Positions 100 through 329 of a stretch of DNA of 22,560 nt are shown piece after piece. Within the stretch, counting starts at the first letter, position 1. Each line of letters begins with the position of its first letter. This DNA is from Nitrososphaerota archaeon (GTDB taxonomy: Archaea > Thermoproteota > Nitrososphaeria_A > Caldarchaeales > Calditenuaceae): the NCBI GenBank assembly GCA_038741355.1, contig JAVYLC010000026.1:1-22560 (forward strand), written 5' to 3'. Position numbers and translations under genes: made by a program. The notes beneath the pieces were generated by a model that saw only the letters and a list, made by a program, of their open reading frames with translations, was not told the origin of the DNA and searched no databases.

Positions 100-329
100 G
101 CCCCGATAGGAGGACCAGGCCGGAGGGTATTGTGTGCTCTCCGGCGGGGTTTCCCTCCTGTCGGGGAGCAAGGCGGCCGAGGCCTCCCGGGAATGCCATG
201 TCCTCTGACGTGGCTGCCTCCTCGGAGGCCTGGGGGGCTTTGTTTGGGGAGAGCCCACGTGATGGGGAGGGGCGATGCCCCACCACGGACTCGCCGCCAT
301 GCATGGTCGTCTGCCCGGACGGCCATGCA
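100..329. ncRNA. GC-rich, densely hairpinned non-coding island (candidate structured RNA; identity and strand unknown)
   Basis: Three ORF-track ORFs (78.. +, 130..387 +, 76..330 -) are open at once here and translate to P/G/R-rich low-complexity peptide, the usual artefact of GC-rich non-coding DNA. Helices read directly: 119-125/139-145 GCCGGAG/CTCCGGC; 194-199/209-214; 216-220/225-229 GCCTC/GAGGC; 235-239/252-256 GGGCT/AGCCC; 269-273/277-281 GGGGC/GCCCC; 300-311/318-329 (12 bp, one G-T). A possible closing helix is 173-178/293-298 GGCGGC/GCCGCC. Confidence 0.4.

Follow-up and report, generated by a model that had tools for sequence, protein, structure and literature searches.

A candidate structured mRNA leader with an embedded start codon at the left end of selfish cassettes in Caldarchaeales

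Fold-back inhibition is known from the insertion sequences IS10 and IS50, and in the T4 I-TevI mRNA a hairpin sequesters the ribosome-binding site. Folded single-stranded DNA makes up the ends or sites of other mobile systems, as seen in the subterminal hairpins of IS200/IS605 and in integron attC. IS110 elements such as IS621 are accompanied by a bridge RNA (PMC11208160; PDB 8WT6, 8WT9, 9T56), and TIGR-Tas systems use tigRNAs and their arrays (PMC12045711). The GC-rich island described here shares with the bridge RNA its 5′ position, its place at the left end and a multi-helix architecture of ~200 nt, and the predicted fold of the protein encoded beside it also resembles that of Tas proteins. 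The papers searched on bridge RNAs, TIGR-Tas systems and noncoding-RNA atlases make no mention of Caldarchaeales or of LAGLIDADG-linked leaders of this kind. The reading that is favoured here, with a probability of roughly 0.55, is that the island acts in cis as a structured mRNA leader with the start codon inside it, that it forms a portable left-terminal module of selfish cassettes with nuclease or recombinase-like genes, and that it gates their translation.

The island, its gene and its relatives

The window, meaning the whole stretch of 22,560 nt that was analysed, is contig C26 of a 1.65-Mb Caldarchaeales assembly, taken from its first base. An initial annotation made from the letters alone had singled out a GC-rich island at 100-329, and the composition bears this out: the island extends over approximately 98-342 and has 69% G+C against 52% for the genome, with values of 0.68-0.70 over 101-350 in 100-nt intervals, 0.41-0.55 in the flanks and 0.52 for the assembly. 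Its homology edges are sharp at ~98 and ~342, with the match to one further copy in the genome (C48) starting at ~98 and the matches to two others (C9 and C16) stopping at ~340. The upstream region at 1-97 of the + strand is common to seven of the eight copies in the genome and extends, in other copies, ~230 nt past the point at which the contig starts. Because the contig begins within this repeated region, the left junction of the window copy itself is not visible. Weak TATA-like motifs occur at 63-71 and 75-80, the TTTAT reported earlier at 75-79 being present, and 1-97 is a possible promoter for the leader. The C48 copy and the relatives are without this region and have instead a C/A-rich flank of the form ...AAACxCCCC... 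that runs into T-rich sequence. At the 3′ edge of the module, where inter-copy homology ends, lies a G-rich, Shine-Dalgarno-like tract, GTGGGGGGAGGG (331-342, +), a putative ribosome-binding site; it is followed directly by the GTG of the LAGLIDADG gene in C9 and C16 and by an ATG in C1.

A comparison of the whole window with Rfam covariance models, a search that had been proposed for the island, gave a single match, to tRNA-Ala, and no family for the island; the best match in 1-600 has E = 0.35, far under the gathering threshold, and lies outside the island at 452-497. The tRNA-Ala(TGC) at 21273-21344 is the sole Rfam or ARAGORN match in the window.

Directly 3′ of the island is a gene on the + strand. 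Its open reading frame (ORF), which is open through the island at 78..1187, runs from the AUG in the leader over 198-1187 and comprises ~58 low-complexity codons (198-371) followed by a compact protein (372-1184); the N-terminus predicted from ATG 198 is MSSDVAAS... Neither the single sequence nor the profiles of two alignments matched Pfam, NCBIfam or PDB sequences, and all 178 database relatives, from Candidatus Caldarchaeum, Nitrososphaerota and Caldarchaeales bins, are annotated as ‘hypothetical protein’. The initial annotation had named protein homology as one objection to a structured RNA; the ORF has no such match, and conservation and covariation are found among relatives. An AlphaFold (AF2) model built from 44 sequences has a pLDDT of 90.8, and its top 11 PDB matches in Foldseek are all IS110-family bridge recombinases (ISCro4, 9T56; IS621, 8WT6/8WT9), with E values of 5e-6 to 2e-4 and TM scores of 0.57-0.62 (query-length normalised). 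TasH-tigRNA complexes come next. The alignment of 44 sequences contains no invariant or near-invariant Ser; given this and the lack of a sequence-level match, the protein is named by its IS110/TasR fold and not as a member of IS110. On the strength of the model, the neighbouring gene is predicted to encode an IS110/TasR-fold protein of an archaeal family without earlier description. A second, degenerate IS110/TasR-like gene lies at 9013-9675 of the window, with 38% identity over 212 aa (tblastn) and a frame that is broken after ~48 codons; nhmmer found no island-type leader upstream of it.

BLAST recovers eight copies of the island in the genome, which are 74-93% identical to the window copy. 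Six of them precede a gene of the window type, as expected if the island travelled with the recombinase gene; the other two (C9 and C16) precede a two-motif LAGLIDADG endonuclease gene and have no IS110-like gene nearby, and at least nine further copies of the window-type gene in the same genome are without the island (C29, C17, C43, C5, C76, C19, C7 and others). The island thus does not travel with the recombinase gene as a bridge RNA would. One locus (G000:C8:13258-14311) is a deletion derivative in which sequence from ~80-230 nt before the island has been joined directly to the final third of the gene, with the 3′ RNA behind it; it is a MITE-like remnant without the island.

The most conserved stretch of the island, its core GGCCTCCCGGGAATGCCATG (181-200, +; also given as GGCCTCCCGGGANNGCCATG), matches eight times in the genome, with no match for the reversed control. 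As a search pattern, the core occurs in 9 of the 76 Caldarchaeales genomes, in two families and often in multiple copies, and in at least 80 metagenome loci; in a phylum sample of 401 genomes it was found in nine and in none of the ~340 outside the order. Members gathered by pattern and nhmmer searches were filtered for an upstream hairpin H1 (described below), which left 94 distinct leaders among the matches listed, including those from metagenomes. Of the 90 leaders with a classifiable first gene, 86 lead into a gene for a nuclease or a recombinase-like protein, in most cases in frame. Genes headed by the leader belong to two subfamilies with the IS110/TasR fold and to the LAGLIDADG homing endonucleases, and the leader also stands before a small methyltransferase-containing operon. 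Subfamily B consists of divergent IS110/TasR-like proteins of ~340 aa with the motifs VFLDFGR, VIVLDSLP and KSDENDV, has the same leader and AUG, and is seen at L116, L125, L131, L138, L158, L177 and about 20 more metagenome loci.

RNA fold, start codon and reading frame

Folding of the + strand gives a minimum free energy (MFE) of -157.9 kcal/mol (z = -6.3), which none of 200 dinucleotide shuffles equalled, against -124.3 kcal/mol for the - strand. Folding at growth temperature, a check suggested at the outset, leaves the structure in place, with -62.5 kcal/mol and z = -5.2 at 75 °C and -40.7 kcal/mol and z = -4.1 at 85 °C (mononucleotide shuffles). The consensus fold of the eight genome copies has 67 pairs in seven helices, and 97.2% of its cells are paired, compared with 40-50% in a control in which the partners were slid by 1-3 columns. 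The excess of G.U over A.C cells (49 versus 5 in the eight copies) points to the + strand as the folded strand, although folded single-stranded DNA of the top strand would look alike. Double compensatory changes affect four pairs among the eight copies, all of them in the terminal 12-bp hairpin (300-311 / 318-329, loop 312-317, +), where for example AUGCAUGG/CCAUGCA is exchanged for GCGCGG/CCGCGC; the other helices are invariant or show only wobble changes. Taken together, the fold appears to be a real, conserved RNA structure backed by base-pair substitutions. The initial annotation was thus sound in proposing a structured RNA-type element on the + strand, directly 5′ of what Foldseek identifies as an IS110-fold gene, and in its terminal hairpin at 300-329.

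Upstream of the terminal hairpin, a closed domain (172-298, +) is formed by GGCGGC at 172-177 and GCCGCC at 293-298. This long-range helix had been proposed with its 5′ strand one base off, at 173-178; it is 100% paired in the eight copies, with wobble changes only and none that is compensatory. The domain holds a helix 181-191 / 229-239, a hairpin around the AUG and a hairpin 258-267 / 278-287. Four inner hairpins had been read here by eye; the first (194-214) is present as 195-202 / 207-214, and the remaining three (216-229, 235-256 and 269-281) are not conserved pairings and are replaced in the eight-copy consensus by the helix 181-191 / 229-239 and the hairpin 258-267 / 278-287. In one copy (C1, G000:C1:48255-48285) the hairpin that corresponds to 258-287 has its 10-nt loop inverted, from AGGGGCGATG to CACCGCCCCT, and its stem intact, which favours the 258-287 stem over the one read earlier at 269-281. 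The flip looks like a small inversion between the inverted repeats of the stem, and the C1 copy is a pseudogene. Over 82 representative leaders, long-range closing helices show a weak excess over dinucleotide shuffles (38% versus 21% and 58% versus 24%). The closing helices are subfamily-specific, and many metagenomic leaders pair locally in another way.

The 5′ part of the island is a single 66-nt hairpin, H1 (101-166, +), with a basal stem of 13 bp (CCCCGAUAGGAGG, 101-113, and CCUCCUGUCGGGG, 154-166), an upper stem at 119-125 / 139-145 and a variable tip. The small hairpin nested in GGAGG/CCTCC (109-113/154-158) that was noticed initially is exact and forms part of H1. In 92 leaders H1 measures 60-70 nt and has a median MFE of -47 kcal/mol, and its basal stem is near-invariant, with wobble changes only (GC to GU 20, UG to CG 9, AU to GU 5). 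The upper stem differs between subfamilies and stays paired, that is, it covaries. In a core alignment of 17 sequences, RNAalifold found no compensatory pair in H1. The invariance of H1 suggests that the sequence itself is read by something, beyond the helix, and the conserved basal stem would suit sequence-specific recognition, possibly of left-end DNA, just as well as a stem in RNA.

The core ends in the start codon, ATG 198-200, and GCCATG is invariant among the aligned leaders. The AUG lies in the 5′ strand of a hairpin (195-214, +) that pairs GCCAUGUC (195-202) with GACGUGGC (207-214) across the loop CUCU and has the general form GCCAUGnn / nnCAUGGC. This hairpin was scored by a direct stem search, since RNAalifold had mis-aligned it. 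A stem of at least 8 bp is present in 91% of the 94 leaders, compared with 50% of chimeras made from two leaders, and the first pair after the AUG occurs as A-U (43), G-C (19), U-A (17) and G-U (9), thus including three Watson-Crick types. The putative initiation codon thus lies in a helix supported by covariation, which sequesters it. A 13-nt complementarity of the leader core to the C48 gene, at its REALAE codons, was also noted and dropped, as it is not conserved.

The relation between this AUG and the downstream gene was examined in the 90 of the 94 leaders that have a classifiable first gene, not all of which are independent cases. The first gene is in frame with the leader AUG and open from it in 74 of 90, where one third would be expected by chance; by gene class the counts are 20/22 for LAGLIDADG, 28/38 for IS110/TasR-like A and 25/26 for B, and 16 leaders are out of frame. 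Among the eight local copies, indels downstream of the AUG are of 3 or 6 nt, while those upstream are also of 1, 2 or 4 nt. In the window gene there is no alternative in-frame ATG, GTG or TTG from 305 to the conserved FYVDVH motif. Diversity by codon position is almost flat in the extension (0.29/0.31/0.41 and 0.38/0.42/0.49) compared with the core genes (0.27/0.19/0.47 and 0.28/0.22/0.50), and the encoded extension is Gly/Pro/Ala-rich, of low complexity and unlike between subfamilies. The frame linkage, the indel pattern and the near-flat diversity together suggest that nt 198-342 are translated yet shaped chiefly by RNA pairing, so that these nucleotides most likely represent weakly constrained N-terminal codons, with ATG 198-200 as the probable start codon in actual use. 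In several copies the 3′ edge of the island also carries another start codon together with a G-rich, Shine-Dalgarno-like tract, and translation might begin there instead.

These observations also bear on the coding status of the island as a whole. All six of its reading frames are largely open, on both strands, as is expected at such G+C content. The initial annotation had noted the open frames correctly and had taken them as a non-coding signature, which does not hold, as the frame from ATG 198 is the one used in this reading. The opposite extreme, that the island is ordinary protein-coding sequence and forms an N-terminal domain, could appeal to the ORF that is open throughout from 78 and to the frame kept from ATG 198, but it is highly unlikely: indels upstream of 198 are not multiples of three, the extension has no family match and differs between subfamilies, and the codon-position pattern is nearly flat with compensatory substitutions in RNA helices.

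Element ends and the RNA 3′ of the gene

The position of the island within the element can be read from one pair of filled and empty sites. In a relative (G024), in which the island is absent, the orthologous gene end reads ...CCTAAACACCCCCTATTTTTTCCCTTCTTTTTAATTC and the empty site ...CCCCCTATTTTTTCCCTTCTT.... In the filled site at L043 (gene end CCTAAACACCCCCTATTTTTTCTTT) the flank ...CCCCCTATTTTTTCTTT meets the start of H1, from which the sequence continues as CCCCGATAGG... This single pair, L043 versus G024, places the start of the insertion within ~4-7 nt of H1. Since the empty site lacks the island, the island arrives with the insertion, and the module appears to lie inside the element at its left terminus, not outside an element end at CAAG (328) as had been tentatively proposed. 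At this locus (L043/G021), a primase-like host gene is followed by the island, then by an ORF of 148 aa that begins at the leader AUG, by methyltransferase pieces, by the IS110/TasR-like gene and by the 3′ RNA. In the C48 copy, a methyltransferase-like gene in frame-shifted pieces (G000:C48:910-1832) lies directly upstream of the island; comparison of the two orders indicates that the leader can take different positions within cassettes. The right junction of L043 repeats the target-like CCCCCTATTTTTCCCTTCTTTTT; no empty site was found for this side, where synteny is not kept, and a search of five genomes of the same genus for the empty site of the LAGLIDADG cassette L010 gave no usable match.

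Leaders in other genomes and in metagenomes have upstream flanks that are C/A-rich (...AAACxCCCC...), often with a T-run, and that resemble the right terminus of the element, GCCCCCAGCCAAACTCTCCCCTATTTT. Cassettes with LAGLIDADG genes and those with IS110/TasR-like genes have the left module and a right-end motif, CCCCCAGCCAA(A)C..., in common. Read by eye, LAGLIDADG cassettes end in a related motif beside a tRNA-like sequence on the opposite strand, with distances of 20-50 nt between cassette ends and tRNA-like sequences (G000:C9:1640-1790; right flanks of C76 and C19); the tRNA-like sequence beside C76 and C19 seems to hold an intron-like insert. ARAGORN found no tRNA in a similar sequence at L010.

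The main rival to an mRNA leader is that the island, or at least H1, is primarily the left end of the element at the level of DNA, a recognition or recombination site that possibly acts as folded single-stranded DNA, with any role in the mRNA being secondary. Several of the above observations suit this possibility, namely the start of H1 only 4-7 nt from the left junction, the near-invariance of its basal stem across genera and across cargo genes that are <25% identical, and the left module and right-end CCCCCAGCCAA(A)C... shared by cassettes with different genes. One group of copies adds to this. In G027-type leaders (L019-L023, L032; at least five copies), the 3′ half of H1 has been deleted between two CTCCGGCGG repeats, and the copies keep the terminal CCCCGATGGGAGG despite the loss of the 3′ strand of H1. 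However, many copies of the gene have multiplied without the island (C29, C17, C43, C5, C76, C19 and C7), the right end has no matching structure and the island no complementarity to it, the C48 module sits between the methyltransferase gene and the IS110/TasR-like gene, and the invariant AUG with its frame linkage favours a function in mRNA. A primary role as a DNA end is therefore considered unlikely, while a leader role in the mRNA and a role of H1 at the left end of the DNA may coexist.

The same G027-type copies offer a view of what the leader may be needed for. Directly upstream of the IS110/TasR-like gene, G027 and a related bin have a perfect palindromic TATA box, GAGGCTTATAAACCTC, that belongs to the gene itself, and the ORF of the leader stops after 56-63 codons inside this box, being short and out of frame; the copies have still multiplied. 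In the window genome, mutations have altered the TATA box in C24 and deletions have removed it from C15, C33, C26 and C48, and the gene forms an in-frame fusion with the leader. The contrast between copies with their own TATA box and a decayed leader and copies without a TATA box and with an in-frame leader ties the leader to expression and not to mobility.

A second structured element begins at the stop codon of the gene. This conserved RNA-like structure (1190-1376, +) is closed by GGCUGGGGG (1190-) and GCCCCCAGCC (1344-1353), has a T-rich end and presents two AT-rich hypervariable loop strands at 1243-1253 and 1284-1296. All gene subfamilies of the genome keep it, also those that lack the island and those with only 31-35% protein identity. 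The right loop and adjoining stem bases (~1281-1294) agree with the reverse complement of 1685-1698 at 13 of 14 positions, which suggests that the right boundary of the element lies beyond 1385; the segment 1685-1698 is located just upstream of an ORF at 1715-2467. The guide-like RNA of the element thus appears to be this separate 3′ structure, and not the island.

The initial annotation had offered the 5′ guide RNA of the insertion sequence as one identity for the island. That it is a bridge or other guide RNA of an IS110-like element, encoded 5′ as in IS621, would agree with its place directly upstream of a gene with a predicted IS621/ISCro4-like fold and with its architecture of ~245 nt, several helices, variable loops and a 14-nt variable strand in an internal loop. 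Its pairing potential argues otherwise. Exact 10-mers common to a copy of the island and the ±3 kb around it number 0-6, where ~3 are expected, with no recurrent position, and comparison with the 80 nt around the right end of the element gave one shared 8-mer over five copies, no more than in shuffled sequence. The island also holds a start codon and in-frame codons, has no Rfam match, is missing from at least nine gene copies in the genome and precedes LAGLIDADG genes with no IS110-like gene nearby, whereas a different RNA with AT-rich hypervariable loops follows the gene in all subfamilies. A guide function is therefore extremely unlikely. With regard to a TIGR-type organisation, the aligned copies contain no tandem unit, and GUGAUG and CUGA occur in some copies only; box C/D-like motifs in the island were dropped as candidates because they are not conserved among copies. 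A combined scheme, in which H1 and the 3′ guide-like RNA would make up a split, two-RNA guided insertion with H1 as the donor-side RNA or DNA part, shared in trans by the LAGLIDADG cassettes that have no recombinase, is regarded as improbable.

The two other identities first suggested, an unrelated noncoding RNA gene and a pre-existing hairpin target, can be considered together, as both hold that the mobile genes landed beside the island. An independent small-RNA gene or hairpin-type insertion target would account for a discrete module with sharp edges at ~98 and ~342 that stands beside unrelated genes, but this is very improbable. The empty site of the relative contains no island; the island is always fused to an ORF, is never seen alone and in 86 of 90 classifiable cases precedes a nuclease or recombinase-like gene; its spread over 9 of 76 genomes is patchy and multi-copy, like that of mobile DNA; and the 3′ RNA has AT-rich loops, which show no match to the GC-rich island.

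A possible translational gate and known systems

With these alternatives considered, the reading of the island as a structured mRNA leader can be put in mechanistic terms. The first part of the transcript, nt ~101-197, would be a 5′ untranslated leader composed of H1 and a C-rich segment resembling an anti-Shine-Dalgarno sequence, and ATG 198-200, in the 5′ strand of its 8-bp hairpin, would be the start codon. The hairpin of the AUG, the pairing of the C-rich CCUCCC with G-rich strands and the GGAGG:CCUCC stem of H1 would keep the initiation region closed at growth temperature, and translation of a potentially harmful nuclease or recombinase would thereby be throttled or gated. Such gating may chiefly concern read-in transcripts from the host gene upstream, which are to be expected as the element inserts at the T-rich end of that gene. 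We infer both the transcription start and the regulatory effect of the leader from sequence.

The leader reading has practical consequences. If the RNA 5′ of the IS110/TasR-fold gene is not the guide, as proposed here, attempts to reconstitute the system should seek the guide downstream of the gene, with the N-terminus of the protein taken from the AUG inside the leader. With no Rfam match and an occurrence in only two Caldarchaeales families among the genomes searched, the leader would represent an uncatalogued RNA family, one that is used by unrelated selfish nuclease genes, and it is a handy marker for the left end of such cassettes. If the leader does gate translation, it would be a clear archaeal case of structural control of initiation on the mRNAs of mobile elements at high temperature.

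Compared with the known systems, the bridge RNA of IS110 elements (IS621; PMC11208160; PDB 8WT6, 8WT9, 9T56) differs from the island in several respects: the island has neither target and donor loops nor complementarity to the ends, holds a start codon, is dispensable for many copies of the gene and is shared with LAGLIDADG genes. TIGR-Tas (PMC12045711) differs in that the island has no tandem repeat-spacer layout and no conserved box C/D-like motifs. The island resembles IS200/IS605 and attC in having strand-specific hairpins where a mobile cassette ends, although the enzymes of its cassettes are not of the HUH or integron type, the other end has no counterpart, and the conserved in-frame AUG points to RNA. 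The likeness to IS10, IS50 and I-TevI is one of arrangement, in that a cis-acting RNA structure at the 5′ end occludes the initiation region of a selfish gene, and the island likewise lies just downstream of a host gene from which read-in transcripts are expected. There is no homology in sequence or structure to these systems, and the island differs in that its host is archaeal and its regulatory effect is hypothetical. Furthermore, at ~245 nt it is much larger, consisting of a leader plus ~50 codons, and it is portable before unrelated gene families at the left terminus of their cassettes.
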